Source: Verrucomicrobiia bacterium | GTDB lineage: Bacteria; Verrucomicrobiota; Verrucomicrobiia; JABWAM01 | NCBI GenBank assembly: GCA_028687435.1 | Contig: JAQUAF010000004.1 | Location: 66,344-130,343, forward strand | Direction of reading: 5' to 3' | DNA length: 64,000 nt | Shown: positions 2,845 to 62,384 of the stretch, one piece after another | Numbering within the stretch: the first letter of the stretch is position 1 | Layout: every line of letters begins with the position of its first letter | Program-made: the position numbers and the translations under genes | The notes under the pieces: generated by a model | Seen by the model: only the letters and a program-made list of their open reading frames with translations | Told to the model about the DNA's origin: nothing | Database searches by the model: none

Positions 2845-4209
2845 TTATCGTCTGGTCGTCACCGTCAAAACCGCCTGGGATTGGACGCCGGCCGGAACCT
2901 CGTCGCAGATGAGTTCAAAGGTGTAGGAGCCTTTGCCCAGCCGGGTTGAACAAAGCTCGATCAAATCCATGTCCGGCGTGACATCCACCTTCCATGGAGC
3001 GATATCGGGATGCCCCACCACATTGACCGTCATCCGCATGGATGAACCAGCCTTCTTTGGAAAGTCCAGACGGCTGATCAAACGCACCGCCTTGGGAACA
3101 TGAATGCGCAGGGAATACACGGCGCCGCGCTTGATCATGACCTTTTCGGTCTGGGCGCTGTTGCTGAAAACAAACCAGTCGCACAACCCTTGGAAGGGCA
3201 ATGACCGGTAGCCGGGCGAGGAAGCGATCGATTCGCGCGTGTCCAGCGACAGGCAGTAAAACAGGGCCAGAATCGTCAACACAGGAAGCGTCAAAAACAC
3301 GGCCACAGGCAGCAGTTTGCTCATCAGGCTCGGGGGACGCATCGCATAGGCGATCGCGGGCGAGATGCGGGCGCGAACCTGGGGCACTCGAACCACCCTG
3401 GGCGCCGCCACAACCGCCTTTGCCGCGGCAGCCGCCGCAACCGCCATCGGCGCGGCCTGCTCATCCACAAATTTCAACCTTACCTTCAACCGCCGCCCGC
3501 TCCCTCCCTGCTCCAGCCATGGAACAATATCCACCTGGTTGGACTCGATCTTTGCGCGGATCAACTCGCGATGTTCCTCGGTAAGCGTGGCGTCAGGCCC
3601 CAATCCAAGGGCTTCGCGCACAAAACGGTCAAAAACCTCGTCCGGTATTTCCATCTCGGCGTGGTCGGCGGACTGCGGAGACTCCATGGCTTTGGCATCC
3701 GATTCGCGCGCCTTGGCGCCGAAATAAGCGCTGAGGGTGGAACTCATTCCCATGAGCCGCGTATTGCCCTCCTGAATGCGCCTGGCCAGCAAAGTGGCCA
3801 CATTCAGGCCGAGACGCACCCCGCCCGGACGGGTTTCCATGAACCGCCGCAACGAATCATGCGGAATGGCCCACGCCACAACTTCGTCGTTGGCCATCAC
3901 GTTCGCCGAGGCCATGGCGGCGGTGAGAAAACTCATCTCCCCAAAACACTGCCCCTCCCCAATGGTCGCCAGCACGCATTTCTTTTTCGTCTCGGGATTG
4001 ACTTTCGACACCTCGAAATTGCCTTTGATGATGTAGAAGAAATAATCGATCGCGCCCGCGTCGGCCACCACCAGTTCGCGGTGGTACTCCATGTAAATCC
4101 CCATGGATTCCAGGTCGGCGATCTGGCCGGAATCCAGTCCGTCCAGCACTCCGCTGGGGGTAAGATGACATTGTTTTGAGGACGCTTGTTCATGAGTAAG
4201 GCTGTTCAT
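2845..4209 (-). CDS. Cyclic-nucleotide-binding domain membrane protein, hypothetical
   Basis: 454 aa. N-terminal cNMP-binding motif (IGEGQCFGEMSFL), an Ala-rich linker, a hydrophobic TM segment (LLPVAVFLTLPVLTILALFY) and a C-terminal beta-rich domain of unknown function. Confidence 0.6.
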   Translation of the reverse strand: MNSLTHEQASSKQCHLTPSGVLDGLDSGQIADLESMGIYMEYHRELVVADAGAIDYFFYIIKGNFEVSKVNPETKKKCVLATIGEGQCFGEMSFLTAAMASANVMANDEVVAWAIPHDSLRRFMETRPGGVRLGLNVATLLARRIQEGNTRLMGMSSTLSAYFGAKARESDAKAMESPQSADHAEMEIPDEVFDRFVREALGLGPDATLTEEHRELIRAKIESNQVDIVPWLEQGGSGRRLKVRLKFVDEQAAPMAVAAAAAAKAVVAAPRVVRVPQVRARISPAIAYAMRPPSLMSKLLPVAVFLTLPVLTILALFYCLSLDTRESIASSPGYRSLPFQGLCDWFVFSNSAQTEKVMIKRGAVYSLRIHVPKAVRLISRLDFPKKAGSSMRMTVNVVGHPDIAPWKVDVTPDMDLIELCSTRLGKGSYTFELICDEVPAGVQSQAVLTVTTRR

Positions 4210-4376: not shown

Positions 4377-4447
4377 GGAAGCGGTGCGGGAGCCCCGCCC
4401 TCCATTGTCGATATGATGGAAAAAGGAGGGCGGGGCTCCCGCACCGC
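4377..4447. repeat. Family-A hairpin repeat (REP/MITE-like), complete copy
   Basis: GCGGTGCGGGAGCCCCGCCCTCC ... GGAGGGCGGGGCTCCCGCACCGC: a perfect 23-bp inverted repeat around a 20-nt loop. It sits in the divergent intergenic region between the cNMP-protein gene and the GntR gene. Confidence 0.85.
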
Positions 4448-4540
4448 TTGTTGTGCAGCCTTCGGAATCCAACTGATTCAATTTGACAATTCACTTGGAC
4501 TAGTCTAATATGTGAATGTTTTGTCAATTGGACTATACCA

Positions 4541-9044: not shown

Positions 9045-9138
9045 GGCAAGGCGGTGCGGGAGCCCCGCCCTCCGTCATTTTCCAATAAATGGAGGGCGGG
9101 GCTCCCGCACCGCTTTTTCCGACAACCTTCAATTTTTC
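9045..9138. repeat. Family-A hairpin repeat, complete copy plus tail
   Basis: GGCAAGGCGGTGCGGGAGCCCCGCCCTCC..GGAGGGCGGGGCTCCCGCACCGCTTTTTCCGACAACCTTCAATTTTTCC, between glmE and mal. ORF 9027.. falsely starts in it. Confidence 0.85.
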
Positions 9139-10488: not shown

Positions 10489-11865
10489 ATGAAAACATCG
10501 AACTCCCCAAAAATGGATGAAATCCGGATTCTCTCTCCCACAGCCATTCTTGGCTACGGTTTCCCCAGGGAATCTTTTCTGCGGGGCATGAAGGCATCGC
10601 CCCACGTGATCGCCGTGGACGCCGGCAGTTCCGACCCGGGACCGTTCTACCTTGGACATGGCAAATCATTCGTGGACCGGAATGCCGTCAAACGGGACTT
10701 GGAAATCATGATCACCCAGGGGAAAAAACACGGCATCCCCGTGATCATCGGCACGGCGGGGGGAAGCGGCGCCAAAGTCCATGTGGACTGGTGCATGGAA
10801 ATCATCCGGGAGATTGTCCGCGCCCACCGGCTGCGGCTGCGAACAGCCCTGGTTTATTCCGATGTCGAAAAGAAAACAGTCATCCAAAACCTGCAAAAGA
10901 AAAAAATCCGCCCCCTTCCCTTTGCGCCATCCCTGACGCCCAAGATCGTCCGAAACACCACTCGCGTGGTGGCCCAAATCGGAGTCGATCCCTTGATCAA
11001 GGCGCTGTCCAAACCGGTCGATCTGGTGGTGGCGGGCCGCTGCTACGATCCGGCGGTCTTTGCGGCCTTGCCGGTGAAGGAAGGATTCGATCTGGGACTG
11101 GCGCTGCATTTGGGAAAAATCCTCGAGTGCGCCGCCATCGCCGCCTCCCCAGGAAGCGGACGGGATTGCGTGCTGGGCATCCTGAAAAAAAATTCGTTCA
11201 TCCTGCAAACCCTCAGCCCCAACCGCCGTTTCACGGTGAATTCAGTGGCGGCGCATACCCTGTACGAAAAATCCCACCCCTTTATTTTGCCGGGACCTGG
11301 CGGACATCTGGATCTTTCCCAATGCCGTTTCCGGCAAAAAACTCCGAACTCCGTGGAGGTTTCCGGAAGCCAATTCGTGCCGGACACCCCTTGCACCGTC
11401 AAGATCGAGGGCGCGGTTTGCGTGGGATACCGGACGATATCCATCTGTGGCATTCGCGACCGCATCATGATCCGGCAGTTGGACGACATTTTTGCGGCGG
11501 TGCGGGAGGCGGTGAAAAACAATTTCGGCGTCCGGGACTACCGGTTGAATTTCCGGGTTTACGGACGGGACGGAGTCATGGGGCCGCTGGAACCGGCGCC
11601 TCAAGAAATCGGGCATGAAGCGGGAGTGATCATCGATGTGGTGGCGGCCACGCAGGAGGAAGCCAACACCATTTGCGGTTTCACCCGCAGCACGGCCCTC
11701 CACTATGGCTATCCGGGCCGGATTGCCACGGCAGGCAACCTGGCCTTTCCATTCAGCCCCTCCGACACCCCCATGGGCGCCGTGTATGAATTCAGCATCT
11801 ACCATTTGATGGACATTGCCGGCCCCTCAAACCTGTTTCCGGTAAAATCAATGATTTTGAATTAA
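10489..11865 (+). CDS. AtuA-like (DUF1446) family protein, function unknown
   Basis: 458 aa. Architecture and motifs (IPVIIGTAGGSG; VVAGRCYDPAVFAALP; ILECAAIAASPGSG) resemble the acyclic-terpene-utilisation AtuA family. Followed by a DUF4387 gene, as is typical for AtuA-like genes. Confidence 0.5.
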   Translation: MKTSNSPKMDEIRILSPTAILGYGFPRESFLRGMKASPHVIAVDAGSSDPGPFYLGHGKSFVDRNAVKRDLEIMITQGKKHGIPVIIGTAGGSGAKVHVDWCMEIIREIVRAHRLRLRTALVYSDVEKKTVIQNLQKKKIRPLPFAPSLTPKIVRNTTRVVAQIGVDPLIKALSKPVDLVVAGRCYDPAVFAALPVKEGFDLGLALHLGKILECAAIAASPGSGRDCVLGILKKNSFILQTLSPNRRFTVNSVAAHTLYEKSHPFILPGPGGHLDLSQCRFRQKTPNSVEVSGSQFVPDTPCTVKIEGAVCVGYRTISICGIRDRIMIRQLDDIFAAVREAVKNNFGVRDYRLNFRVYGRDGVMGPLEPAPQEIGHEAGVIIDVVAATQEEANTICGFTRSTALHYGYPGRIATAGNLAFPFSPSDTPMGAVYEFSIYHLMDIAGPSNLFPVKSMILN

Positions 11866-12020
11866 GCCGGGCCGGAGCGCGGCAGCTTGACACCCGATGC
11901 TCGATGCTCGACGCAGAAACGATCACTCAAAGGCGGGATACGACCGCCCGGAGCCGTTCCGCCTTCGTCTCTCATCGGACTACGGCGGGACAGGCCGGGA
12001 GGTTCACCACGTTTCACGTG
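11866..12020. repeat. Long composite repeat module (shared with 62077..62240)
   Basis: AATTAAGCCGGGCC..; ACGATCACTCAAAGGCGGGATACGACCGCCCGGAGCCGTTCCGCCTTCGTCTCTCATCGGACTACGGCGGGACAGGCCGGGAGG recurs at about 95% identity at 62160-62240. Confidence 0.75.
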
Positions 12021-12104
12021 GCCGGCCCTCCATCTTTTTACGCCAAATGGAGGGCGGGGCTCCCGCACCGCCTTTTTCGCCAAACTTTGAAATTCCTTAA
12101 CATT
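12021..12104. repeat. Family-A repeat (left arm partial) plus tail
   Basis: GGCCGGCCCTCC..AAATGGAGGGCGGGGCTCCCGCACCGCCTTTTTCGCCAAACTTTGAAATTCCTTAACAT. Confidence 0.8.
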
Positions 12105-19390: not shown

Positions 19391-20467
19391 ATGAAACTTT
19401 CCCCCCGCGAAAATCTTCTGAGAACCCTGCGCCGTCAGGGATTCGAGCAAGTCCCGGTCGATCCGGGATGTTTTTGCCCCTCCCAAACCGAGGCGTTTAA
19501 AAAACGCTTCGGCCACGAGGATCACTACGCCTTTTTTCAAGCGCCCATGCGCCACGCGGGAATCCCCACCGTCCAATCCTTCAATGGATGGAAAGAAAAA
19601 TACTACCGCCACGAGGAACTTCCGGCGGACACGGAATTTGACGCCTTCGGGGTGGGGCATTCGCATCGACCGGGCTGTTTTCACATGACCCGGATGCATC
19701 ACCCGTTGAAAGGGGAAGGGTTGACCGCGGACGACGTGCTCCGCTATCCCCTGCCCAAGCTGGCCGAAAACGCCCGTTCCCATTTGCGTGAAAAATGCGA
19801 CCAGTTGCATCAGGATGGCTTGGCGGTCATGGGCTGCCTGGGCTGCACGGTTTGGGAATGTTCCTGGTACATTCGCTCGATGGAAGACCTGATGGCCGAC
19901 ATGCTGACCGGGGAGGAAACCGCCGCATTGTTGCTGGATCGCGTGAGCGATCTTGCCTGCGAACGGGCGCGGTGCGCGGTGGAGGCGGGCGCGGACTTGC
20001 TTCAACTCGGAGACGACATCGGCATGCAATCATCCCCCATGATGAGCCTGGACCTGTGGCGTCAATGGCTGCAACCCCGGCTCAAAAAAGTGATCGATGC
20101 GGCGCGGTCCGTCCGGCCGGACATCCTGATTTTTTATCATTCCTGCGGTTATGTCCTGCCGTTTTTGGACGGTTTGATTGAGGCGGGGGTGGATATCCTG
20201 AATCCCGTCCAACCCGAATGCATGCAATTCGAGGAAGTCCATGCCAGGGTCGGAACACGGCTGTCGTTCTGGAGCACCATCGGGACGCAAACAACCCTGC
20301 CTTTTGGAAAACCCGATGAGGTGCGCGAGACGGTATGGCGGAATCTGCGCATCTGCGGCAATCAAGGCGGAATCGTGATCGGCCCCACCCACATGGTGGA
20401 ACCGGAAGTGCCGTGGGAAAACCTGATGGCCATGAAAGAGGCCTGCGAAAATTTCAGATTAAATTAA
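19391..20467 (+). CDS. Uroporphyrinogen decarboxylase (URO-D) / MtaA-like family protein
   Basis: 358 aa with a URO-D-fold signature (ERARCAVEAGADLLQLGDDIGMQSSPMMS...ILIFYHSCGYVLPFLDGLIEAGVDILNPVQPE). Confidence 0.7.
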   Translation: MKLSPRENLLRTLRRQGFEQVPVDPGCFCPSQTEAFKKRFGHEDHYAFFQAPMRHAGIPTVQSFNGWKEKYYRHEELPADTEFDAFGVGHSHRPGCFHMTRMHHPLKGEGLTADDVLRYPLPKLAENARSHLREKCDQLHQDGLAVMGCLGCTVWECSWYIRSMEDLMADMLTGEETAALLLDRVSDLACERARCAVEAGADLLQLGDDIGMQSSPMMSLDLWRQWLQPRLKKVIDAARSVRPDILIFYHSCGYVLPFLDGLIEAGVDILNPVQPECMQFEEVHARVGTRLSFWSTIGTQTTLPFGKPDEVRETVWRNLRICGNQGGIVIGPTHMVEPEVPWENLMAMKEACENFRLN

Positions 20468-20494
20468 GCCGCGCCAGGCGCGGCAACTTGAATA

Positions 20495-20636
20495 GCCACA
20501 AAAGGCACAAGCATCGTCAACAGGACAACGTTGACGATGTCACAAAATATGTTTTATCAAATGTCAACCATCCATTCTGAAATTAAATCTTGTGAAAGCG
20601 GCAATCGCGATTGCCGCTGCTTGTGCCTTTTGTGGC
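20495..20636. repeat. 142-bp highly structured element: 18-bp perfect outer stem enclosing two internal hairpins
   Basis: GCCACAAAAGGCACAAGC (20495-20512) pairs perfectly with GCTTGTGCCTTTTGTGGC (20619-20636). Inner hairpins: ATCGTCAAC-AGGACAAC-GTTGACGAT and GCGGCAATCG/CGATTGCCGC. Lies between the convergent URO-D and tsaB genes. Confidence 0.7.
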
Positions 20637-20681
20637 CATTCAATCGTGCCGATGATACTGAAACTTTGAATTTCCCAAACA

Positions 20682-21344
20682 TCAAGCTGAACTTCGCCCG
20701 GGCACGGCCACGCGGACATAATGGGGACCGAGACTGGAAAGCGCGGGCGCGCGGGAAAAATCCTGACGGCAGGCCAGCGCGCCGGTGGCTGATGCTGTGG
20801 GGAAAAGGCACAACCAAGGCGTCCCGGCCAAAAACGGAAAATCTTCAACCTTCAGTTCGTAACTGATCACCGCCGCAAAAGACCGTCCGAAAATTTGTTC
20901 CAATCCGGAGGGAGGCGCAACACGGGTTTCCGCCTGCCTCAGCGCACCTCCCCGCAATTCGACCTTGGCGCCAAAGATTTCCTCCCGCCGGGCATCGTTG
21001 AGCGCCAGAAAATCACCATCGGAAAGCTTGAGTTGACTGGCGGCCTGCGCGGCAAGGGCAAGCGGCGTCGGAATCTCGCACACCGGCATCTCATCCGCGC
21101 AAAGCAACCCCTTCAAGAATGCATAGCCAACCCGGAGGCCATTGTACGATCCGGGACCCTGGCCGATGACACAAAAATCGACGTCCTCCAACCGGACGCC
21201 AAGCCGCCGGTAAAGCGGCTCGATCAGGCGGGAAGCGTTGCCGCTTTCGGACACTTCGCGCAAGACAGTCTCCCCCTCGCCCAAGGCGAGACTCAATTGG
21301 GACGAAGAACTTTCAATGGCAAACCAACGGCGGGAGGTTTTCAT
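20682..21344 (-). CDS. tsaB: tRNA threonylcarbamoyladenosine biosynthesis protein TsaB
   Basis: 220 aa, YeaZ-like (LSLALGEGETVL...CVIGQGPGSYNGLRVGYAFLKGL). Confidence 0.85.
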   Translation of the reverse strand: MKTSRRWFAIESSSSQLSLALGEGETVLREVSESGNASRLIEPLYRRLGVRLEDVDFCVIGQGPGSYNGLRVGYAFLKGLLCADEMPVCEIPTPLALAAQAASQLKLSDGDFLALNDARREEIFGAKVELRGGALRQAETRVAPPSGLEQIFGRSFAAVISYELKVEDFPFLAGTPWLCLFPTASATGALACRQDFSRAPALSSLGPHYVRVAVPGRSSA

Positions 21345-21769
21345 CAGGGATTCGTCATGGATACCCGCCAGGCACCATCTTGCGTTTCGGCAAACACCAC
21401 CCGATAGGTGCGGGAATCGGGCAGAAGGGGTTCAACCAATTTCGGCCATTCAATGGCCAGCACATTTTCCTGACTCAACTCCTGTTCCAAATCCAGGGCC
21501 TCAACCTCCTCCAAACGCTTCAGTCGATACAAGTCGTAATGAACCAGATCCAACCGTCCGCCACGATAGTAATGGACGAGGTTGAATGTGGGGCTGGTGA
21601 CAGGCTGCTGAAAGCCAAGCCCGGCTGCAAGCCCCTTGACAAAGGTGGTTTTGCCGGCGCCCAGTTCGCCATAAAGGGCAAACACCTCGCCGCCCTGCGC
21701 CAGATGCGCGGCGTCAGCCGCCAAATTCATGGTCTCCTGGGCCGAACGGCAAAGATGATGGCTGGTCAT
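21344..21769 (-). CDS. tsaE: tRNA threonylcarbamoyladenosine biosynthesis ATPase TsaE
   Basis: 141 aa with YjeE P-loop (FALYGELGAGKTTFVKGLA..SPTFNLVHYY). Confidence 0.85.
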   Translation of the reverse strand: MTSHHLCRSAQETMNLAADAAHLAQGGEVFALYGELGAGKTTFVKGLAAGLGFQQPVTSPTFNLVHYYRGGRLDLVHYDLYRLKRLEEVEALDLEQELSQENVLAIEWPKLVEPLLPDSRTYRVVFAETQDGAWRVSMTNP

Positions 21770-21801
21770 GACCGCAAGAAAACCGGCGTGGCCGCGTCCC
21801 G

Positions 21802-22188
21802 TCAGGGAACAATGAATATCTTGCCGGTATGCGGACAGCGGACTGGCGTTCCCGAAGCCATGGCGCCCACATCCACAAGGGTTTTATCCTGGGCATAGGG
21901 GCTTTTCACCAAGCCGGGCCATTTGGTCTTGATGCCGAATGGATATCCGCTCTTCTTGGGCAGCTTGTCCAGAGGAATGATCTGATTGGAATCCGCTGCG
22001 GTGGGAGGAGGGGGAGGAGGTTGGGAAGGCTGGGATGGCGCCGGTTCAGAAGGGGGATCAGCCGGCACTTCGCTCCCCGGCGTGGGTTGCTGGGGTTCCG
22101 TCTTCTTGGCGGACTGCGTTGTGGCGCACCCGGAAAATACAAGGGCAGCCGCCAAAGCGAAAATACTGGTCAAGCGGATCGATTTCAT
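21802..22188 (-). CDS. Lipoprotein, Pro-rich, hypothetical
   Basis: Signal peptide with lipobox (LVFSGC), then a PQQPTPGSEVPADPPSEPAPSQPSQPPPPPP linker. Confidence 0.5.
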   Translation of the reverse strand: MKSIRLTSIFALAAALVFSGCATTQSAKKTEPQQPTPGSEVPADPPSEPAPSQPSQPPPPPPTAADSNQIIPLDKLPKKSGYPFGIKTKWPGLVKSPYAQDKTLVDVGAMASGTPVRCPHTGKIFIVP

Positions 22189-22248
22189 AACAAAACAGAC
22201 TAAAGCATAAACCGGCGGTCATTCAACTCAAAACAAACACCCAAAAAC

Positions 22249-23382
22249 TCAAACCATCCGGACAGCGCTATCGTCGTCAAACTTGCATCGCAACATCTCG
22301 GCGGTGGAGGGGGAAATCAGGCTGCCCTCCAAAAGCTGTCCCAGGCGCTTTTGCCAGGAAACCGACCGGCTGCCCGCCAGACATTCCGCATCCAGCCGCG
22401 CCCACGATCCATTGACAATCGCGGACCGGATCGCCTGCTGGTCGTTGACCAGCGCCTCGTACATCAATTCCGGCAGCACATACTCCCCATCCTGCGCCTC
22501 CCGCCTGACCAACATCTGGCAGATCACCCCCCTCACCAACCCGCCCAGTTTATGACGCAATACGCGGCACCCCTCGGAATTCTGAAAGGAATGGGCATCC
22601 ATCACGGCATCGAAAACACGCGACACCCGGTCGGCAAAGGTGGTGGTGATGACCAGATGCCCGCTGCCCGCGGCTTCCACCGCCAGCCGGATGGTTTCGG
22701 GTGTGCGCATCTCACCAATCACAATCAAATCGGGTTTTTCCCTTTTGGCCCGGAAAATTCCCTCCTCCCATGTCTGGACATGGGTCCCCACATGTTTCTG
22801 CGAGAACATGCAGTCCCTGAAACGAAAAACGTACTCCACGGGATCCTCCAGGCTGACCACATGCGATCCCGGATAAATCTGGCAGAACTCCCTCACCAGC
22901 GACGCCATGGTGGTGGATTTGCCGCTTCCCGTGGGACCTCCAACCACGATGATTCCCTCGCGTTTTTCAAGCAGCGCGGCGGCAAGCCCCTTCGGAAAAC
23001 CCAACCCGTCCAACGGATCGATCTGCGCCCGCAAAACCCGCACATCCACGGCAAACCCCATGTAATTCTCGCTCTCATGCCCGCGAAACCGGTACAGTTG
23101 CTCCCCCACCGTGGCGTCAAAGGAAAAATCAAGGCTGTCCGGACGGGCCTTGCGCAAGTCGCCCTCGGAATCCACCTGCATGGCCTCCGCCAAAAAACGG
23201 GACATCTCCGCCTCGGTCAAGGAATCGCGCAAGGAAGGATGCGGCATCCACTGGCGGTTCATGTTCACAAAAGGCGGGCTGCCGTTCTGCAGGCGCAAGT
23301 CGCTGATGAAAGGGGTGAGGCTCCGGTCATTGAGGTAACGTCTCAACATCACCGGATTGATTGGAGAAGCGGGAGAAGACAT
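22249..23382 (-). CDS. PilT/PilU-family type IV pilus retraction ATPase
   Basis: 377 aa. Walker A GIIVVGGPTGSGKSTT, plus Asp-box and His-box regions typical of PilT. Confidence 0.8.
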   Translation of the reverse strand: MSSPASPINPVMLRRYLNDRSLTPFISDLRLQNGSPPFVNMNRQWMPHPSLRDSLTEAEMSRFLAEAMQVDSEGDLRKARPDSLDFSFDATVGEQLYRFRGHESENYMGFAVDVRVLRAQIDPLDGLGFPKGLAAALLEKREGIIVVGGPTGSGKSTTMASLVREFCQIYPGSHVVSLEDPVEYVFRFRDCMFSQKHVGTHVQTWEEGIFRAKREKPDLIVIGEMRTPETIRLAVEAAGSGHLVITTTFADRVSRVFDAVMDAHSFQNSEGCRVLRHKLGGLVRGVICQMLVRREAQDGEYVLPELMYEALVNDQQAIRSAIVNGSWARLDAECLAGSRSVSWQKRLGQLLEGSLISPSTAEMLRCKFDDDSAVRMV

Positions 23383-23422
23383 GATGATTCAAAATTTAAG
23401 ATTCAAGATTGACCTTCCCTTT

Positions 23423-24241
23423 TCATGGAAGGGGTTTTGAGTCGAATATCGAACGGGTTTCGCCGGGCCTTCTGCCCGCCGCGTTTTTTTCCAGCATCAA
23501 AATCTGTTCCAGCAACATCCGCCGCCGGCGTTCGAGCCTTTGGACTTCGTCGCCCAATTCACCGGCGGAAAGATTCGTCCGCAAACTCTCGACCCGCACC
23601 GCGCCATCGGGCTGGGCGCTCAACCGGAAACACCCCATCCTCAGCAGGGGCGCCAGCAAATCCTCGGTGACTATGCCCTCGGGCTTGATGCTGACCGATA
23701 AATCCCCGCCTGCCTGCCGGGCCGCCTTTCGCAAAAGCTGCAATTCGCGCAAAACCATCTCCACCCGCCGCCCCGCAACCGCCGGCAGGGCGGCGCTTTG
23801 CATCTCCCCCCCATTGAGCGAGGGTTTCCATCTGGAAGCGCCCGGTTCCCTGGACATCACATCCACCCTTGGAGATGGCGCATAGCCATCCGCCTCTTCA
23901 TTCCGATTCTGCCGGGAACTTCTGGTTGTGGATTGAAGGGGGGATTTTCCGGAAAAATCCTCCGCCTCAATCTCGAGCGAACCGCCCCCCTCGCGGGCCG
24001 GCATTGCCGGCTCATTGCGGGAAACCACCCGGATGCCCAGTTCCGGCTCCGCGTCCACATCCGCCGGGCGCGCTGCATTCTGGCGCGATACTTCAACCAA
24101 ATCCCTTCCCACCCGTTTGACGCGGATTTGTTCCTCTTCCGCGCGCAGATGCCCCACCCCAAGACAAACCACCCATCCCGCAATCGCCAGCTTCCATATC
24201 CGCGGAAAGCGGTTGAGAAAGGAGAAAAATGGCCATCTCAT
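23423..24241 (-). CDS. Hypothetical secreted protein upstream of PilT-like gene
   Basis: 272 aa. N-terminal hydrophobic signal/anchor. Low-complexity, charged. Confidence 0.4.
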   Translation of the reverse strand: MRWPFFSFLNRFPRIWKLAIAGWVVCLGVGHLRAEEEQIRVKRVGRDLVEVSRQNAARPADVDAEPELGIRVVSRNEPAMPAREGGGSLEIEAEDFSGKSPLQSTTRSSRQNRNEEADGYAPSPRVDVMSREPGASRWKPSLNGGEMQSAALPAVAGRRVEMVLRELQLLRKAARQAGGDLSVSIKPEGIVTEDLLAPLLRMGCFRLSAQPDGAVRVESLRTNLSAGELGDEVQRLERRRRMLLEQILMLEKNAAGRRPGETRSIFDSKPLP

Positions 24242-24298
24242 ACCCTCCTATGGGTTGTCAGGCATCCATCGACAAGCGATTTTAAAAAAAATCCGCAA

Positions 24299-25279
24299 TT
24301 ATTCCGAAACCCGGCTTGCAAACCACTCGTAAGTCCGGCGCAAGCCGGCGGCAAGACCGGTGCGGGGATTCCATCCCATTTGCCGGAGCGGCGTCCAGTC
24401 GAGCGTCTTCGCCGCCGCGCCATCCGGCTTGGAGGTATCCCACGCAATCCGCCCCTTGAAACCTGTCACTTCAACCAGGCAAGCCGCCAACTCGGCAATG
24501 GAACAAACCTGTCCCGACCCCGCATTGACCGGCGCCTCCCCATCGTAACGCTCCAGCAAAAGCAAAACCGCCTCCGCCAGATCGTCCACATAAAGCAACT
24601 CTCTCTGAGGCCGTCCACTACCCCACAAGACCACCTCCGAAGCCCCGGTCTGTTTCGCCTCATGAAACCGGCGCATCAAGGCGGTCACCACATGGGCGCG
24701 CTCCGGGTCCAGGCAATCCCCGGGGCCATAGACCCCGGCGGGAATGACATTGATATAGGCAACCCCGTGCTGCCGCCGGTAGGCGTCGCACATGATCATC
24801 CCGGCCAGTTTGGCCGTTGAATAGGGTTCGCTGGTCGGTTCCATGGGCCCGGTCCCGATCTGCTCCGGCCGCATCGGCTGCGAACATTCGCGAGGATAAA
24901 CACATCCCGATCCAAAGTTAACCAGACGCCGCACCCCCGCCTTCCACGCGGCATGGATGACATTGGCCTCAATCATGAGATTGTCATAAATAAAATCCGC
25001 CGGCTGCTTCCGGTTCGCGCCAATCCCCCCAACCCGGCCGGCCGCCACAATCACCGCATCGGGACGTTCCTTTTCCAAAAACGTCGTCACCGCCGGACCA
25101 TTGCGCAAATCCAATTCCCCCCGGGAAACCGTCAAAATCTTTGCCCCGTTTTCGTCCGACAACCGCCTTGTCAAGGCGGAACCCACAAGCCCCGAATGAC
25201 CGGCCACAAAAACGCGCCTGCCCGAAAGGGGAAAACACCGGTTGGATTGACGTTCGACGCCCATAAGCGCGCAAATCAT
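24299..25279 (-). CDS. fcl: GDP-L-fucose synthase
   Basis: RVFVAGHSGLVGSALTRRL NAD(P) motif; YSTAK catalytic Y-x3-K. The track ORF extends to 25462 into a repeat; start chosen at the ATG at 25279 (alternative 25264). Confidence 0.85.
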   Translation of the reverse strand: MICALMGVERQSNRCFPLSGRRVFVAGHSGLVGSALTRRLSDENGAKILTVSRGELDLRNGPAVTTFLEKERPDAVIVAAGRVGGIGANRKQPADFIYDNLMIEANVIHAAWKAGVRRLVNFGSGCVYPRECSQPMRPEQIGTGPMEPTSEPYSTAKLAGMIMCDAYRRQHGVAYINVIPAGVYGPGDCLDPERAHVVTALMRRFHEAKQTGASEVVLWGSGRPQRELLYVDDLAEAVLLLLERYDGEAPVNAGSGQVCSIAELAACLVEVTGFKGRIAWDTSKPDGAAAKTLDWTPLRQMGWNPRTGLAAGLRRTYEWFASRVSE

Positions 25280-25334
25280 GCCCACGCCCCCGGCCATGAA
25301 CAAGAAAAAAGCCGCGCCGGAGCGCGACGGCTCG

Positions 25335-25440
25335 ACGCCCAATGCTCGATCCGCCTTCGCTCTGCGAACTTGCGCCTTCGCCAAAGCTTCGGCGTCACAA
25401 GCTGGCGAGACAAGCGCCGAAGCAAAAAACCGGCAAGGCG
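25335..25440. repeat. Family-B module (variant)
   Basis: CTCGATCCGCCTTCGC..CTTCGGCG..GAGACAAGCGCC, related to 624-676, 40262-40320 and 62102-62160. Confidence 0.6.
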
Positions 25441-25451
25441 GTGCGGGAGCC

Positions 25452-25553
25452 CCGCCCTCCATTCATTTCGCGACAAATGGAGGGCGGGGCTCCCGCACCG
25501 CCTTTTTCGCCAAATATTGAAATTTCTGAACATGAACCAAGACAATTTTCTCA
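25452..25553. repeat. Family-A hairpin repeat, complete copy plus tail
   Basis: CAAGGCGGTGCGGGAGCCCCGCCCTCC..GGAGGGCGGGGCTCCCGCACCGCCTTTTTCGCCAAATATTGAAATTTCTGAACAT. Confidence 0.85.
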
Positions 25554-37751: not shown

Positions 37752-37777
37752 GCGATGCACGACGCCCGCAAACCCCT

Positions 37778-37880
37778 GGCAAGGCGGTGCGGGAGCCCCG
37801 CCCTCCACTTGTCGGAAAATGATGGAGGGCGGGGCTCCCGCACCGCTTTCCCACAAATATTGAAGTTCCTTAACACTGAA
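37778..37880. repeat. Family-A hairpin repeat, complete copy plus tail
   Basis: GGCAAGGCGGTGCGGGAGCCCCGCCCTCC..GGAGGGCGGGGCTCCCGCACCGCTTTCCCACAAATATTGAAGTTCCTTAACACTGAA. Confidence 0.85.
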
Positions 37881-40236: not shown

Positions 40237-40244
40237 ATTAAATT

Positions 40245-40320
40245 AGGCCGGGCCCAAGGCCCGGCAACTGCTCGATCCGCCTTCGCCCAAGCGCTTCGGC
40301 GAGACAAGCGCTCGACGCAC
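40245..40320. repeat. Stop-codon-proximal GC hairpin (GGCCGGGCC-CAA-GGCCCGGC) plus family-B module
   Basis: AATTAGGCCGGGCCCAAGGCCCGGCAACTGCTCGATCCGCCTTCGCCCAAGCGCTTCGGCGAGACAAGCGCTCGACGCA, nearly identical to 62085-62160 and 624-676. Confidence 0.8.
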
Positions 40321-40564: not shown

Positions 40565-43500
40565 ATGAAAAACGATACCCCTTTCAAGGCAAGCCGTTAT
40601 GCGCGGCTCTTGTGGAACGAATGGATGATGCAGCCGGACGATGACTGCTACAATATCGGCTTTGTCTATGAAATCACAGGGAAACTGGATGTGGAGCGTC
40701 TGAAAACCGCCCTGCAATGCTATATCAACCGGAACCCGCAGATCCGTTCCTCTTTCAGTGAAAAACAGGAAACCCTGTATCAAACCTTCCAAAGCCAAAT
40801 CAAGGATCCCATCGTTTGCCAGGATTGCTCGGGCCAAGGACAAGAGGAACTCGACGGTCTGATCCAAAAGCTCTGCGGGCAAAGCTTTGATCTCTCCCAT
40901 GCGCCGCTGTTTAAGTTTTCCATCCTTAAAGCCGATGACCACCGGCACTACTTGGCGTTGCGTTTTCACCACATCATCGTTGACGGGACCTCACTCGAAA
41001 AAATCCCCCTGTCGATTGCCGCATTGTATAACGCCACCGATCCATTGCTCCCCGGAGAAGTCGTCGGCGAACCGCCCCAACTGGGCGCTTATTTGGAATA
41101 TGAAGAGGCGCTTTTTAAGAAGTCATCCCTGCCGGAAGCTCTGGATTATTGGGAACAATTGCTTGGCGGCCGGAGCTTGTATGTCAATTTGTCGAAAAAA
41201 GAAAGCGCCCCCAAGAATCCTGATTTTTCAGTCAAAATCTTCAATTTCGATTTGGACCAGAAACTGACGAATCTGATTTCCAATTTGGCCCGGGAAAATT
41301 CCGCCACGGTTTTCCATGTCATGGCGGCGCTCTGGAGCGTTTTCCTGAAAAAATATTCCGGCCAGGAAAGCATTGCCTTTGTTTATCCTGTCGGAATGCG
41401 CCCCGGAAACATGATGGACATGGACGGTTATGCCGTGAACTCGCTGCCGATGGTCACGGATTATCGCGAAAATACGACATTCGTTTCTTTGGTCGGCCAA
41501 ATCAAGGAACAGCGGAAACTCGCCAAACGCCATCAATTCGCCCCTTTTGACGAGATCGTCAACCGATATAATAAAACGGCGCCTTCCAAATACGGCCAAC
41601 AATACAATAACTATCTGAACGCGGTCATCAGCCAATCCAACGAGTTGCTGGACTCGCCGATGGACTTGAAAGGGGTGCAGGTCAAAGCCATCCCCTCCTC
41701 AACCCTGTTCCATGCGGAAATGGGATTGATCTATCGCAAAGAACCTCAGACCCTTCATTGCCAGATCTGTTACAACCAGGCTTTGTTTGAAGATTTTGTT
41801 TACGCGTCGGCAGAAAAGGATTTTACGCGTTTGGCGGAAAGGTTGCTGGCCGATCCCCATCAAGAGGTTGACGCGGTGTCCCTTCTTGCCGAGGGCGACC
41901 GGCAACAAATCCTTTGCGACTGGAACAAAACAGACGTTCCCTTTTCCAAGGAAAAAACCATTTCCGCGCTTTTTGAAGAGCAGGTGGAACAAACACCGGA
42001 CAACCTTGCCGTGGTCTATGAAGGAAAAAGCCTGAGCTACCGGGCTCTCAATCAACAGGCCAATCAACTGGCCCATGCCATTCGGGGGAAATACCGGGAA
42101 TTCCATGGGAAAGAGATCCAAGGCGATACGCTGATCGGGTTTTATATGGAACGCGGCATGGAAATGATTGCCGGCATCCTGGCGATCCTGAAGGCCGGGG
42201 GCGCCTACGTGCCATTTGATCTCGCCGATCCTGAAGAAAGGTTGAAATTCAAGCTTGACGACAGCAATTGCAAAATGATCGTTGCCAGCGCGGAAACCCT
42301 TGAAAAATTGCAGCCGCTGACCGGCGCAAAAATTCCAACGATCAGCATCGACGCCGAGGCGCGCGAAATAGAAAAAAGACCGGCCTCCAACCCGGCGCCG
42401 GTGAATCATTCCAGAAACCTGGCCTGCCTGATCTATACGTCGGGATCGACCGGCCGCCCCAAAGGCGTGATGACCGAGCACTGCGGCGTGGTGAACTTCA
42501 TCGACTATCACCGGAAGAACTTCGTCCCCCTCAAAAAGCATCATCATGTCCTGCAAAGCATTTCCCTGAGTTTCGACGCCTCATGGACCGAATTGGCCCT
42601 CGGGCTTTTTACCGGCTCAACTCTGCATATCGTCAAGTCGATGGCGGAAATGACCGAAAAGCGGATGCTCCAATTTCTCAAGGACCATGAAATCAATGTT
42701 TTCATCTCGACTCCCGCGATGGTGGAAAACCTGTCCAAAAAAGACAGCGCCAGCCTGGAGATCATCATTTGCGGGGGCGAGGTCTGCGAGAAATCAATCA
42801 TGGATGACTGGAGCGACCGGGTCAAATTTTACAACGCCTACGGCCCGACGGAAGCAACGATCTGCGCCACCTATTCCGCGCATCGCCGGAGCAAATCCAA
42901 CCGGAATATCGGAAAGCCGTTGCAGAACAAAAAAGCTTATATCCTTGATGCCAGGCTTAACCCGGTTCCCAAGGGGCTGTGGGGTGAGTTGTATATCGGG
43001 GGAGAAGGCCTGGCCAGGGGCTATTGGAATCGGCCGGAATTGACCCGGGAACGGTTCATGGATGATCCCTTCGCCCCTGCCGCGGGATCGAAAATGTATA
43101 AAACGGGTGACATGGTCCGCTGGCTGGAAGATGGCAGCATCGAGTTTCAGGAAAGAAACGACGACCAGATCAAGATCAACGGCTTCCGGGTGGAACTGGG
43201 TGAAATTGAAAACAAGCTTGCGCAATGCCCCGCCCTCTCCCGCAATGTCGTGGTCTGCAGGGAACGGGCGGGAAGAAAATATCTGGCCGCCTATTATACA
43301 ACCCGCGACAAAATTGAACCCGACGCCTTGAAAAAGCACCTTGCCGGTTTGCTGCCGAATTACATGGTGCCGGGTTGTTTCCTCGAACTGCCCAGGCTTC
43401 CCCTGACTCCCAACGGCAAAATCGACAAAAAAGCGCTTCCCGATCCCCATTTCGAACCAGCCAAGGAAACCTATGCGCCGCCGGAAAACGCAATCCAACG

Positions 43501-46500
43501 GCAATTGTGTCAAACCATGAAGGAGGTGCTGGGATTGGATAAAATCGGAATAAGGGACGACTTCTTCGCCAACGGCGGGGATTCGATTGCCTGCCTGCGG
43601 CTGAGCGCGAAGTGCCGCGACAAGGGGCACGCCCTGAGCCCCAGGGATATCTTCGAAAAACGCACGGCGGAAAATCTTTCCCGCTTGATCCAGGAGAACA
43701 AGGGAAAAGGGGCGGCTCCGGATGATCAGGAGGACTTTTCGCAAACATGCCGGGATTTTCTTCCCGCCGGGCTTTTGGCGGAAATCCATCGCCGTTATGC
43801 CGTTGAGGAAATCCTTCCCGCAAACAGCCTGCAGCAGGGGTTTTTGTATCACCTATTGAGCCATCCGGGTGACGACGCCTATCACATCCAAATGCTGGCG
43901 GACTATCGGCAAGGGATTGACGTCACGAAATACGAACAGGCCTGGAAATACGCCGTAAAAAAATATCCCCCCATGCGGACTTGCTTCAATTGGAAGGAAG
44001 AAATCGTCCAAATCATCTGCCGGGATATCGATTTCAAGCTCAACTTTTCCGATGTTTCCAACCACGAAAATAAAGAGGCGGCCATTGATGAAATCCGCCA
44101 TGCCGATCGGAAAAAGGGTTTCGATCTCGCCCAACCGGGGCTTTTTAGGATTTATCTTGTCAAACAGGGCGAGAGCCATTACACGCTGTTAAAAAGCGAA
44201 CATCACAGCATCACCGACGGCTGGAGCAATTCCCTGCAGTTGAATTATGTCCATGCGGTTTACAAGCAACTCCTGAAAAATCAGTCTCCCCCAAACGAAC
44301 CCGACGAAGCCTACTGCGCCGCGCAAAAACACCTCTTTGTCAACCAGGATAAAGCGCAGGCTTATTGGAACGACCGGATCAAAAAAGCCGCTCCGGCCCA
44401 TGATATCCGCCCGCTCTTTTCGGCAAACCAAAATCCCGATGCCATGAAGAAAATCAGGGAACCCCGGGAATATTCCCTGCGGATAGACGGCGCCCCCTAT
44501 GATCTCATTAAAAAAGCGGGACTCAAGGCCGGGGCAACCCTGAATGTCCTCATTCAGTTCGCCTGGCACAAACTTCTCTCCCTCTATGGCGGCAACAGCC
44601 CGACCGTGGCGGGAACGGTTGTATCGGGAAGAGCCCTTCCCATCAAAGGCATCGAAAACAGCGTGGGTCTTTATGTCAATACGCTGCCGCTGATCGTTGA
44701 CTGGCGGGAAAAAACCGTGCAGGAGCAATTGAATCAAATTCATTCCGCCATGATGGAGATGGACGAACATAGTTCCATGAACATCGGCCAACTCCATCGG
44801 GGGGGGCATCGGCTTTTTCACAGCCTCTTCGTATTTGAAAACTACCCCCTGCCCGAGGAAGAAACCCCGGGGCCGGAAGCCCTTGAATTTACGCTGAGAA
44901 AAGCAGCCGGCAAACTCGATTTCCCCCTTTGTTTGGCGGTCTTTGAAAAGGATCATTCGCTTCTTCTCCAACTGAACTACGATGGCGCTTGTTTATTCCC
45001 GGAAGATGCCAGAAAGCTGATGTCCCAAATGGAGCTGATCATCAACGAAATCCCGGACAAACTCGGGGTTTCCCACCACGCAATCTCCGCTCTTTCCCCC
45101 CTGGATTACGAAAAAACGATTCATCTCTGGAACAAGACCGCCTTGGACTATGGGAGGGATCAAACGATTGCCGAAGCCTTCGAAGCCCAGGCGATGAAAA
45201 CCCCCGGGCAGACCGCCCTGGTCTTTGGCGGGGAAAAATTGACCTATCGGCAACTCAACCAACAGGCCAACCAAATCGCGGCCGCGCTCAAAAAAGATTA
45301 TCTCCAGAACTTCGGGGAAGCCATCAAACCCGGCGCCCTTGTCGGGCTTTACCTGGATCGCTCCGTCCAGATGATCGCCGCCATTCTCGGCATTCTCAAA
45401 GCCGGCGCCGCCTACGTTCCTTTTGACCGCGCCGATCCCGCCGGGCGGCTGCAATACAAAATCGAGGATTGCGCCTGCAAGATGATGCTGACCTCCTCGG
45501 CATGCGCGGCGGATCTGGCCTTTTTGCCGCCCGGACGTCCGGCACGCTGGGAGATCGACCGGCATACGACGGAAATCGCCGCCCAGCCGGATTCCAATCC
45601 GAACCGCATCAATCGCGCCACGGATCTGGCCTATGTCATCTATACCTCGGGTTCGACCGGCCAACCCAAAGGGGTGATGCTGGAGCACTACGGAGTGATC
45701 AACCTGGCGGCGTCCCACCGCCAAAGTTTCAACATCGGGGAACAATCGACGATTTTGCAATTTGCGCCGGTGAGTTTCGACGCCTCGGTCTCGACGCTGT
45801 TCACCACGCTGCTCAACGGCGGCACGCTTTGCCTTTGCCCGGAAGAGACGAGGAAAGACACGCAAAAATTGGGTGAACTGATCGTCCAGAACCGGGTGAC
45901 CCTGATCGATATTCCAGCCAGGTTGCTGGAGGTTTTCCCCCGGGATCTCGACCTGTCGCATTTGCGTTGCATCATCACGGCCGGGGAGGTCTGCGACCAA
46001 AAGACCATGGACTACTGGAGCGGCAAAGTGAGGTTGATCAACGCCTACGGGCCAACGGAAGGCGCCGTCTGCGCGACCTTTTCGATCCATGCGAAAGGGA
46101 AAAGCAACAAGAACATCGGCAAACCGATTGGAAACAAGAAAGTTTATGTTTTGAACAGCGACCTCACCCCCCTGCCGGTGGGGGCGCCCGGGGAGTTGTA
46201 CCTTGGCGGGGACGGACTGGCGCGGGGTTATCTGAACCGGCCGGAGATCACGCGGGAGCGTTTTATGGCAAATCCCTTTCTAAAGGAAGGCGGACCCACG
46301 CTGCGTGAGGCGAGGATTTACAAGACCGGGGATCTGGTGCGCTGGCTGGACAACGGCGAGCTGGAATTCTTGGGACGAAACGACGACCAGGTGAAAATTC
46401 ACGGCTACCGGATTGAACTCGGGGAAATCGAACAACGGCTGCTGTCGTATCCCGGGATCTCGGGCGGCGCGGCAAAAATTCAGGACTGGAAAGGCGCCCC

Positions 46501-59141: not shown

Positions 59142-59796
59142 GTCTCCCCCCATCGTTCATGACGCCGCCAAAAAATCCTGTCAAAAAATTCAATCGCAAC
59201 TTTTCTTTCACCCAAAAACTTTGAATTCCCCAGACATTCAATCAAAAAAACCGACATCACGCCGCATTGCATGGTTCTTTGTGATCCTTGGATTGTCGTG
59301 GTCTGTTTGGGTCAGTCCAAAAACCCCGGTTGAATTCTTTGATGCCGCTGTCCGGGACGCAAACATCCTCACCAAGCGCGACATGGAATTGTTCAATAAA
59401 ATTGACCCGGCAAAGGCGGCTGACGTCCGGAAAATTGAAGAGATGAATTCCCTCCGCGCCCGCATGGAACGGATTTCGCTCGTCCACGATTGGTTGAACC
59501 ATCCGAAATACGTCCGCGAACAACGATCCGACATCGTCTGGGGATTCTATACGGCCCATTCAGGCACGGAAACTGTCCTTTTGGCAAAAAACCCGGAATA
59601 TCTCTCTTTATCGGAGAAATTTGAGACGCTCAAAACGGAGGTCAAGTCCAGGAAACTTTTAAAGGCAGCCAGCAGCCTCAGTCATGAACTGGAAAAAGAC
59701 CCTCGTCGCAAAACGGATGACTTCCGCATACAAATGCAACGGTTCCTATTGAGAGAATTTCAGGCCCGCATTTTCTGGTGGGGGAACAACCCATGA
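59142..59796 (+). CDS. Hypothetical membrane-anchored protein (weak call)
   Basis: C-terminal part of track ORF 58390..59796, taken from the in-frame ATG at 59142. A TM helix (IAWFFVILGLSWSVWV) is followed by a charged helical domain. Its stop overlaps the next gene (ATGA). Confidence 0.3.
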
Positions 59797-60390: not shown

Positions 60391-60774
60391 CCAAAGTCCA
60401 AAGAGGCTCTTGCAAAACTACGATACTTGGCGTTGCAGCGGATTTTTTTCGCTGGGAAGGCGTGGAGCTTGGGCAATCCCTGCAACGGTGCCGCTTGTGC
60501 GGCACAAGCGATCCCGCCACAGCGGGACCGCCAGCGAAAACAAAGACGCGCAACCCTCTGGGCGACAACCGCTTTGGCCAACTCCGGCGTTGACCTCCTC
60601 GACTTCGCTCGGAACAAGTCGGCAGCTTGTCTCGCCGAAGCGCTCGGGCGAAGGCGGACCTGTCTCGCCGTAGCTTCTGAGCGAAGGCGGATCAAAGCCC
60701 ACTTTGGGGATTTTCCCGCCTCATCGCCTTGGATTTGGCCATAGCGGTTCATCGCGCCAAGCATCGTAGTTTTG
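60391..60774. repeat. 384-bp element bounded by 30-bp terminal inverted repeats (MITE-like); interior built from family-B repeat modules
   Basis: Left end GAGGCTCTTGCAAAACTACGATACTTGGCG (60391-60420). Right end (60745-60774) has the reverse complement GAGGCTCTTGCAAAACTACGATGCTTGGCG, a 29/30 match. The interior contains ..CTGTCTCGCCGAAGCGCTCGGGCGAAGGCGGA.. in inverted orientation. Confidence 0.65.
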
Positions 60775-60851
60775 CAAGAGCCTCCAAAGGCTGAAATTTG
60801 GGGAGGGCCCTTCGGCTTGATCTCCGCATTTTTGAATTTTTAATTGTGAAG

Positions 60852-62018: not shown

Positions 62019-62076
62019 CGAGAATCAGCCTCAACCCAACTGAAGCGAAACCTCGCAATTCAAAAGAAAAAATTTA

Positions 62077-62240
62077 AATTAGGCCGGGCCCAAGGCCCGG
62101 CAACTGCTCGATCCGCCTTCGCCCAAGCGCTTCGGCGAGACAAGCGCACGACGCAAAAACGATCACTCAAAGGCGGGATACAACCGCCCAGAGCCGTTCC
62201 GCCTTCGTCTCTCATCGGACTACGGCGAGACAGGCCGGGA
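62077..62240. repeat. Long composite repeat (stop-proximal hairpin, family-B module and shared 80-bp module), paralog of 11866..12020 and 40245..40320
   Basis: AAATTAGGCCGGGCCCAAGGCCCGGCAACTGCTCGATCCGCCTTCGCCCAAGCGCTTCGGCGAGACAAGCGC..ACGATCACTCAAAGGCGGGATACAACCGCCCAGAGCCGTTCCGCCTTCGTCTCTCATCGGACTACGGCGAGACAGGCCGGGAGG. Confidence 0.8.
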
Positions 62241-62322
62241 GGCCGGCCCTCCATCATTTCGCAGCAAATGGAGGGCGGGGCTCCTGCACCGCTTTTTCCA
62301 ACAAACATTGAAATTCCTGACC
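62241..62322. repeat. Family-A repeat (left arm partial) plus tail
   Basis: GGCCGGCCCTCC..AAATGGAGGGCGGGGCTCCTGCACCGCTTTTTCCAACAAACATTGAAATTCCTGACC. Confidence 0.8.
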
Positions 62323-62384
62323 GACCCTCGCCTAAAGGCGAGGGGTTTACCCATCCCAAACAAGAGACTCTAAAATCCCGAATC

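Follow-up and report, generated by a model that had tools for sequence, protein, structure and literature searches.

In the genome of an uncultured member of the Verrucomicrobiae, the 3' ends of two genes are separated by a nested palindrome, IR142 (142-156 nt), which represents an ordinary type of intergenic element in bacteria and not a new RNA class. It belongs with the known palindromic intergenic modules and terminator hairpins, among which it is lineage-specific, and our tentative reading, to which we give a probability of roughly 40%, is that it forms one module of a REP/BIME-like mosaic and may act as a two-way terminator or as a protector of mRNA 3' ends. The window that we analysed is the whole 64-kb stretch of DNA containing this element, and all positions are those of the window. 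The two flanking genes, a URO-D family gene on the + strand and tsaB on the - strand, are convergent and separated by an intergenic region of 214 nt, which is laid out as follows.

19391-20467, + strand: URO-D family ORF (Pfam), stop codon TAA at 20465-20467
20461-20491, + strand: M1 module, AAATTAA-GCCGCGCC-AG-GCGCGGC-AACTTGA, which includes the URO-D stop codon
20495-20512: IR142 left arm GCCACAAAAGGCACAAGC, composed of the A-tract GCCACAAAA and the stem half GGCACAAGC
20513-20538: hairpin H1, ATCGTCAAC (20513-20521) paired with GTTGACGAT (20530-20538), 9 bp perfect with an 8-nt loop
20539-20597: AT-rich IR142 centre (GC 0.27), in which all helices are weak (20540-20545/20590-20595 and 20551-20556/20578-20583)
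20598-20617: hairpin H3, GCGGCAATCG directly followed by CGATTGCCGC to give GCGGCAATCGCGATTGCCGC, a perfect 20-nt palindrome
20619-20636: IR142 right arm, composed of the stem half GCTTGTGCC and the T-tract TTTTGTGGC, the exact reverse complement of the left arm
20638-20682, + strand: D10 module, ATTCAATCG ... AAACTTTGAATTTCCCAAACAT, whose final base reaches the tsaB stop codon
20682-21344, - strand: tsaB (Pfam), stop codon at 20682-20684

Both flanks of IR142 are thus members of repeat families, so the unit to be explained is the whole 214-nt intergenic region rather than the 142 nt alone. The genes in its neighborhood code for NrdR, AraC, URO-D, TsaB, TsaE (by Pfam, tsaE lies behind tsaB) and a T2SSE ATPase. 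When the source genome itself is set aside, the closest homologues of URO-D and TsaB show 70% and 54% identity, respectively, and the two URO-D loci nearest to this one retain the divergent AraC gene, have different downstream genes and carry no comparable element. Nothing resembling IR142 is present at the other convergent junctions within the window. We also considered that the element had donated the URO-D stop codon (...FRLN*) and rejected this, as the C termini of many homologues read ...FRL, ...FKL or ...FRKN.

The earlier note on this DNA had described a 142-nt element with an 18-bp perfect closing stem and two inner hairpins, and every one of these features is present where the note had placed it. 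The two arms are the sole occurrences of the 18-mer GCCACAAAAGGCACAAGC in the 64-kb window, where 0.07 would be expected, and a repeat search shows that the inverted repeat reaches further, to 20488-20512 / 20619-20643 (TTGAAT[A/G]GCCAC...; 25 nt with one mismatch), with outward extensions of TTGAATA to 20488 on the left and CATTCAA to 20643 on the right. On both strands the arms have the same layout, which is an A-tract CACAAAA followed by GGCACAAGC at one end and GCTTGTGCC followed by TTTTGTG at the other, and the closing stem proper (GGCACAAGC/GCTTGTGCC) has 9 bp that include six G-C pairs. The interior between the arms is 106 nt long (20513-20618) and branched. Overall, IR142 has a GC content of 0.44 as compared to 0.55 in the window, and a composition scan of the window dips at the IR142 centre. 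The repeated GTCAAC motifs that the note had also singled out lose their significance upon closer analysis, with two of the three copies being the two arms of H1 and with GTCAAC/GTTGAC occurring at chance level (48 times) in the window. A degenerate 9-nt tandem array within IR142 was likewise considered and is not detected by TRF.

Folding of the RNA, which the earlier note had proposed as a check, gave structure far beyond chance on both strands. Specifically, a 201-nt RNA folds at -88.5 kcal/mol (z -9.5) from the + strand and at -94.6 kcal/mol (z -9.5) from the - strand, and a DNA fold of 156 nt reaches -47.5 kcal/mol (z -10.4). The minimum-energy structure of IR142 is a three-way junction, and G-U pairs are absent from the three strong helices of 18, 9 and 9/10 bp. 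A strong, strand-symmetric fold that lacks G-U pairs is what a two-way hairpin requires, and this result therefore supports the bidirectional terminator reading. Perfect stems without G-U pairs, together with the low GC content, also suggest that the element arose as a palindromic repeat at the DNA level rather than as an evolved RNA.

The earlier note had offered three candidates, namely a cis-regulatory or small RNA, a bidirectional terminator complex, or a further MITE class. The terminator complex is the best supported of these, as its arms, its slot in a mosaic and a terminator-like call on the adjacent M1 module all speak for it, while the short loop expected of a terminator is missing. 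With arms that are exact reverse complements, either strand reads as a GC-rich stem that runs directly into a U-rich tract, and the element lies between the 3' ends of convergent units (URO-D at 20467 and tsaB at 20682), as a terminator of this kind should. The tail TTTTGTGG contains five T in eight positions, which satisfies the tail rule of the terminator scan. On the other side, the loop is branched and far exceeds the roughly 3-8 nt of a canonical terminator, the U-tract is short (four U, then GUGG), and the scan makes no call on IR142 itself. The sole canonical terminator-like call at the URO-D/tsaB junction is M1 read on the - strand, where GCCGCGCCTGGCGCGGC is followed by TTAATTTAAT.

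The M1 hairpin consists of 7 bp that are all G-C with a 3-nt loop (20468-20474 / 20478-20484), and it stands immediately 3' of the URO-D TAA. The earlier note had reported a GC hairpin directly after this stop codon at 20468-20488; its position is right, and its end had been set 4 nt too far, the real end being 20484. The M1 pattern AAWTTARGCCGSGCC has six matches in the window where 0.12 would be expected, and alignments place further copies at 596, 11859, 25306, 40240 and 62076. Stem pairing is retained in most copies and includes one compensatory C-G/G-C swap. Covariation among these copies is not significant, given a single compensatory pair in five distinct rows and 201 of 500 shuffles that equal it.

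A similar picture is seen on the right flank. The D10 22-mer AAACTTTGAATTTCCCAAACAT (20661-20682) has three matches at ≤3 mismatches in the window versus 0 expected, and eight looser copies could be aligned, every one of them on the + strand. The copy nearest in sequence (59188-59237) also carries the upstream ATTCAATCG and does so without any palindrome. Elsewhere in the window these modules occur in a set order that consists of a stop codon, M1, M2, M3, M4, D10 and a start codon, as exemplified by 11859-12103 and 62076-62324, and some modules have almost the same sequence at different loci (99% over 82 nt, 95% over 97 nt). In M4, two REP-like arms GGAGGGCGGGGCTCCCGCACCGCC in inverted orientation stand ahead of a T3-T5 run, and together these look like a canonical terminator. 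On its opposite strand M3 is a GTAG-tagged palindrome that recurs in an Opitutales MAG, which agrees with the abundance of GTAG REPs in Opitutus terrae (PMC3733652). A GC palindrome with a T3-T5 run comes to an end no more than 10 nt before D10 in six of the eight D10 copies, and in the URO-D/tsaB copy it is IR142 that occupies the slot normally held by this REPIN-like palindrome and T-run. M1 and D10 are both flank motifs that recur in further intergenic regions of this genome, as is expected of a BIME-like mosaic. BIME-like intergenic mosaics are present in this genome, and the one between URO-D and tsaB has IR142 as its interior instead of the usual one. Note that we also considered D10 as a sigma-70 promoter and rejected this, as it has no -10 element at a fixed distance.

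The usual place of M1 is after a + strand stop codon, and that of D10 is 0-40 nt upstream of a + strand start codon. There are two exceptions, which are D10 at 20661 that abuts the tsaB stop codon and M1 at 25311 that adjoins the start of a minus-strand epimerase gene. These two exceptions flank a single minus-strand gene block (20683-25298). Inverting this block would restore the usual M1/D10 arrangement at both of its ends, and we tentatively infer from this that the block was inverted. No inverted repeats were found at the ends of the inferred inversion. If the block was inverted, then IR142 would originally have been located between co-directional units, as the M4 palindromes are, and this possible former layout weakens those arguments that rest on convergence of the genes.

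The anatomy of IR142 and its position suggest how termination or stabilization could proceed. As RNA polymerase passes, H1 and H3 would fold first, and once the distal arm has been transcribed, the 9-bp GC-rich stem GGCACAAGC/GCUUGUGCC would close. Whichever strand is read, the closing stem would directly precede UUUUGUGG, with the U-tract then located in the RNA-DNA hybrid, and polymerases arriving from either gene could be released at this point, or else the 3' end of the transcript could be shielded from exonucleases. Minus-strand read-through from tsaE-tsaB would then meet M1, which presents GCCGCGCCUGGCGCGGC, a 7-bp all-GC hairpin, followed by UUAAUUUAAU. In work attributed to Ju et al. 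2019, terminators that serve convergent genes in both directions are reportedly an established class. Two-way terminators of convergent genes are also discussed in bioRxiv 10.1101/2022.10.23.513370, and REPs are concentrated ≤20 bp from the 3' ends of convergent ORFs (PMC3733652). If the terminator reading is true, then a closing stem with a U-tract could halt RNA polymerase across a pre-folded branched loop of about 100 nt, a case that standard terminator finders overlook, and this region would constitute a PVC-lineage example of REP/BIME-like mosaics that organise transcription-unit boundaries. If IR142 is merely a one-off palindromic insertion, there would be no wider consequence. The mosaics and palindromes also break short-read assemblies of this organism, as seen from the ends of Logan contigs, and they inflate ORF calls over intergenic DNA.

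We searched for known RNAs and for further copies of IR142 in several collections. No Rfam family reaches its gathering threshold anywhere in the window, with the best local match having E = 0.1 and 21 bits versus the 170 required, and the window contains no detectable tRNA or tmRNA genes. BLAST and pattern searches found no second copy of the IR142 arms or interior in the 64-kb window, and plasmids and phages hold no second copy of the element. JGI metagenomes gave no match with GAATRGCCACAAAAGGCACAAGC or with the two-arm pattern, and viral contigs gave three single-arm matches that lack H1. A protein database searched with the open +0 frame of IR142, which would recover spurious ORFs called on copies, returned no shared words, and a literature search for the arm sequence returned unrelated primers only.

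The 18-mer arm by itself is found more widely. A scan of GTDB representative genomes yielded 57 loci where by our own estimate ~17 are expected by chance, and about half of the 57 fall within long open reading frames and seem to match by chance, the others being intergenic. Nine of the intergenic loci are hairpins with an inverted partner arm, and they have spans of 43-116 nt and unrelated interiors. An inverted partner within four mismatches is present in 8 of the 57 loci, for which the calculated chance is ~0.0016 per locus. The hairpins are distributed as follows.

Acidobacteriota (mainly Pyrinomonadaceae): L006, L021, L022, L026, L034, L040 and L052
Opitutaceae: L008 and L024

These foreign hairpins begin 0-3 nt past stop codons, often between convergent ORFs, and those at L026 and L040 are nested, as is IR142. 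The Pyrinomonadaceae hairpin at L022 (GCACAAG...CTTGTGC followed by CTTTTGTGGC) is called terminator-like by the scan, and L034 is left uncalled for the sole reason that its stem gets extended through the A/T tracts. Opitutaceae loci L024 and L025 also carry the preceding GAAT[A/G] that is found at IR142, several foreign arms are built of tandem CACAAAAGG-like units, and in Latescibacterota the 18-mer is a constant component of composite units that are arranged in tandem and include a GTAG REP as well. The foreign loci show no high local density of CACAARAGS motifs. We conclude that hairpin arms located behind genes form a recurrent class, which includes the IR142 arm. The cross-phylum match may reflect common descent or, at least in part, convergence on an A-tract plus stem, with no homology being seen beyond the arm.

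A different possibility, which we regard as doubtful though still worth weighing, is that a non-autonomous mobile element of the MITE or foldback kind gave rise to IR142 by inserting into an existing M1...D10 mosaic and that any effect on transcription is incidental. Such an element would have MITE-like size and terminal inverted repeats, as represented by the 25-nt repeats with their one mismatch, and the GC content of IR142 is indeed depressed relative to the window as described above. There are also two plausible insertion boundaries. Other M1 copies continue with ...GGCARCTTGAC... (11859) or with the close variant GGCTCGAC (25306), and the URO-D/tsaB copy departs right after CTTGA, a point that coincides with the end of the independent Logan contig L001 at exactly 20491, the end of M1. 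On the right, the boundary immediately precedes ATTCAATCG, a sequence that is present without a palindrome in the D10 copy at 59188, and the corresponding empty-site allele would be ...CAACTTGA joined to ATTCAATCG... Logan contig L002 ends at 20611, inside H3. Three of the four Logan contig ends that were examined (12082, 20491 and 25398) coincide with known repeat modules and the remaining one (20611) is inside IR142, which hints that a 30-mer of the element is repeated elsewhere in the sample, although a coverage gap at the hairpin explains this break equally well. Against an inserted element, no target-site duplication is present at any plausible boundary, with the TTGA / TCAA flanks being inverted rather than direct and with TA on the left versus CA on the right constituting the single mismatch of the inverted repeat. 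The element is also single-copy in the window with no second copy in the other collections searched, no transposase with matching ends is seen near it, and the hairpins of other phyla that share its arm have unrelated interiors, so no conserved element family is visible. Note that a mobile origin and the terminator reading are compatible, as an inserted palindrome can also terminate transcription.

A broader proposal is that the GCCACAAAAGGCACAAGC arm, in hairpins of the GCCACAAAAGGCACAAG type, recurs for reasons other than chance and marks an undescribed cross-phylum foldback class of Verrucomicrobiota, Acidobacteriota and Latescibacterota that travels with GTAG-type REP mosaics and is recognised by some conserved factor, for instance a RAYT-like enzyme or a protein that binds RNA, with IR142 as a branched, three-way-junction member that terminates in both directions. 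We consider this proposal to be unlikely.

A role for IR142 as a stand-alone small RNA, or as a cis-regulatory 3'-UTR RNA of tsaB/URO-D whose three-way junction binds a protein or ligand, is quite improbable. The junction is very stable, and tsaB transcripts that end at M1 on the - strand would hold the whole element in their 3' UTR. The small-RNA candidate of the earlier note is nonetheless disfavored by the absence of an Rfam family at threshold, by the lack of a sigma-70-like promoter in or beside IR142 (noting that the sigma-70 consensus may not be that of the host), and by the perfect stems, whose lack of G-U pairs and equal folding from either strand are typical features of DNA palindromes rather than of evolved RNAs. 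There are also no homologues in the collections searched, and the loops and junctions contain no conserved motif.

We think it very improbable that IR142 acts as DNA, with H1 (9-N8-9) and H3 (a 20-bp palindrome) being operators for dimeric regulators, or with the element being a recombination or cruciform site, on a D10-linked unit before the inferred inversion. Both palindromes are free of mismatches and have the size of operators, the DNA fold is strong (z given above), and genes for AraC-family and NrdR regulators are located nearby. The usual location of D10 upstream of start codons would in addition have placed IR142 possibly upstream of a gene at one time. However, neither palindrome recurs in the window, the element is now flanked by the 3' ends of two genes, the neighbors include no recombinase or integrase, and there is neither an attC core-site match nor a dif-like GC-skew turn. 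Four specific candidates were rejected: an integron attC site (CGTCAAC and GTTGACG do not fit R''(RYYYAAC) / R'(GTTRRRY), and no integrase gene is among the neighbors), a retron msr-msd (no RT gene among the neighbors), a dif/Xer site or replication terminus (the GC skew shows no turn, and the sequence does not fit the dif site), and an NrdR box in the IR142 centre (the stretch is not palindromic and no nrd gene is nearby).

When compared with known systems, IR142 resembles bidirectional intrinsic terminators in having a symmetric GC-rich stem with a 5' A-tract and a 3' T-tract between gene 3' ends, and it differs from them in its 106-nt loop with two sub-hairpins, in place of 3-8 nt, and in having only four U. 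Intergenic MITEs include ERIC (~127 bp) and Correia/NEMIS (~100-150 bp, with a 26-bp TIR and a TA duplication) that are present in tens to hundreds of copies, and elements of the ERIC/Correia type can terminate or stabilise mRNA. IR142 shares with these elements a size of 100-160 bp, long TIRs, a long hairpin when transcribed and a transcribed intergenic setting; unlike them it exhibits one copy in the searched data and no duplication.

Regarding the REP/BIME/REPIN systems (PMC3733652; PMC3116915), the surroundings of IR142 are similarly a mosaic of short motifs and REP-like palindromes that has many repeats in one orientation near gene 3' ends, and REP dimers with DNA between the partners have been described (PMC3733652). 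A REP unit is a 20-40-nt imperfect palindrome in which a GTAG or CGTC tag at one end stays unpaired (PMC3733652). IR142 falls outside of this definition, as its arms are not self-complementary and have no unpaired GTAG/CGTC tag, with ATAG / GGCC preceding the arms and the CGTC of H1 being base-paired within the stem. It also differs in being single-copy in the window, where no RAYT gene is seen. Finally, the GCCACAAAAGGCACAAGC hairpins of Acidobacteriota and Opitutaceae differ from IR142 in their unrelated and mostly shorter interiors, but they share with it an identical 18-nt arm, a position just after a stop codon, a frequent location between convergent ORFs and, in some cases, a nested structure.

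Some intergenic regions of the window are occupied by mosaics that resemble BIMEs and that follow the module sequence M1-M2-M3-M4-D10. Here M1 is a family of GC hairpin repeats normally found after stop codons, M4 consists of REP-like inverted arms with a T-run, and D10 is a family of 22-nt motifs. These mosaics are found between genes at the following positions:
593-795, BIME-like mosaic
11859-12103, BIME-like mosaic
25306-25533, BIME-like mosaic
40240-40320, BIME-like mosaic
62076-62324, BIME-like mosaic

Their orientation is + nearly throughout the window, and an M2-like module is present in reverse orientation at ~60620-60690. Pairwise comparison shows that the copies at 40238 and 62074 share 99% identity over 82 nt, and that those at 11906 and 62146 share 95% identity over 97 nt. 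When read on the opposite strand, M3 is a palindrome that carries a GTAG tag.

The 64-kb window also contains at least seven copies of a REPIN-like palindrome family in which a pair of GGAGGGCGGGGCTCCCGCACCGCC arms lies in inverted orientation. The arms are 26-34 nt long with 91-100% complementarity, and a T3-T5 run usually comes after the palindrome:
683-795, REPIN-like palindrome
4379-4449, REPIN-like palindrome
9048-9116, REPIN-like palindrome
12040-12075, REPIN-like palindrome
25435-25504, REPIN-like palindrome
37777-37853, REPIN-like palindrome
62260-62294, REPIN-like palindrome

The D10 motif has the conserved consensus AAAC(T/A)TTGAA(A/T)TTCC..AACAT and is located 0-40 nt 5' of start codons on the + strand:
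7464, 10493, 12082, 20661, 25512, 37855, 46897 and 59216, + strand, D10 copies of 22 nt each

No sigma-70 -10 box occurs at a constant spacing from the D10 copies in the window; the motif might represent some other class of promoter, or else part of a leader.

Both D10 and M1 are oddly placed at the ends of one block of genes:
20683-25298, - strand, gene block coding for TsaB, TsaE, a 128-aa ORF, a T2SSE ATPase, a 272-aa ORF and an epimerase

Specifically, D10 faces a stop codon at one flank of this block and an M1 hairpin lies beside a start codon at the other. Both anomalies would vanish if the block had been inverted in the past; a search for inverted repeats at its ends found none.

A second nested inverted repeat is located upstream of a GFO/IDH/MocA oxidoreductase gene:
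60403-60432 and 60755-60784, 30-nt arms, 97% complementary, with a 322-nt interior

Within its interior are M2-like modules in reverse orientation, together with a GCTTGTGC-G-GCACAAGC hairpin. The 334-aa ORF that overlaps this repeat has no Pfam match and is probably spurious.

Two adjoining giant ORFs contain internal repeats of ~3.2 kb, with 300 nt at 100% identity between stretches at 45128 and 51646:
40565-46960, giant ORF of 2131 aa
46957-56550, giant ORF of 3197 aa

Logan contigs, assembled independently from short reads of the same organism (SRR22315507), end at 12082, 20491, 20611 and 25398. These breaks fall at repeat modules (the M4/D10 junction, M1 and M2) and inside H3, the inner palindrome of the nested element IR142, leaving the middle 119 nt (20492-20610) without confirmation from this assembly. 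A scan of positions 1-64000 found no tRNA, no tmRNA and no Rfam family at the gathering threshold.

Outside the window, M3 is found again at ~2200-2240 of the Opitutales MAG locus L019, where ~900 nt without coding sequence (3000-3960) are dense in simple repeats (ATTAGGA, CACGGAT and CACTCCA-type units across ~270 nt) and also contain a GTAG-REP doublet that forms a long hairpin and two copies of a GCCACAAAAGGCACAA motif. In Latescibacterota MAGs, composite units of ~120 nt are arranged in tandem at L005 (4470-4740), L058 (5700-6100) and L049 (6100-6200), the last of which additionally has (GGCACAAAA)x5. Each such unit combines a simple repeat rich in purines with TAGCCACAAAAGGCACAAGC, a hairpin and the GTAG REP GTAGGGACAGGCCCCCGTGCCTGTCC.
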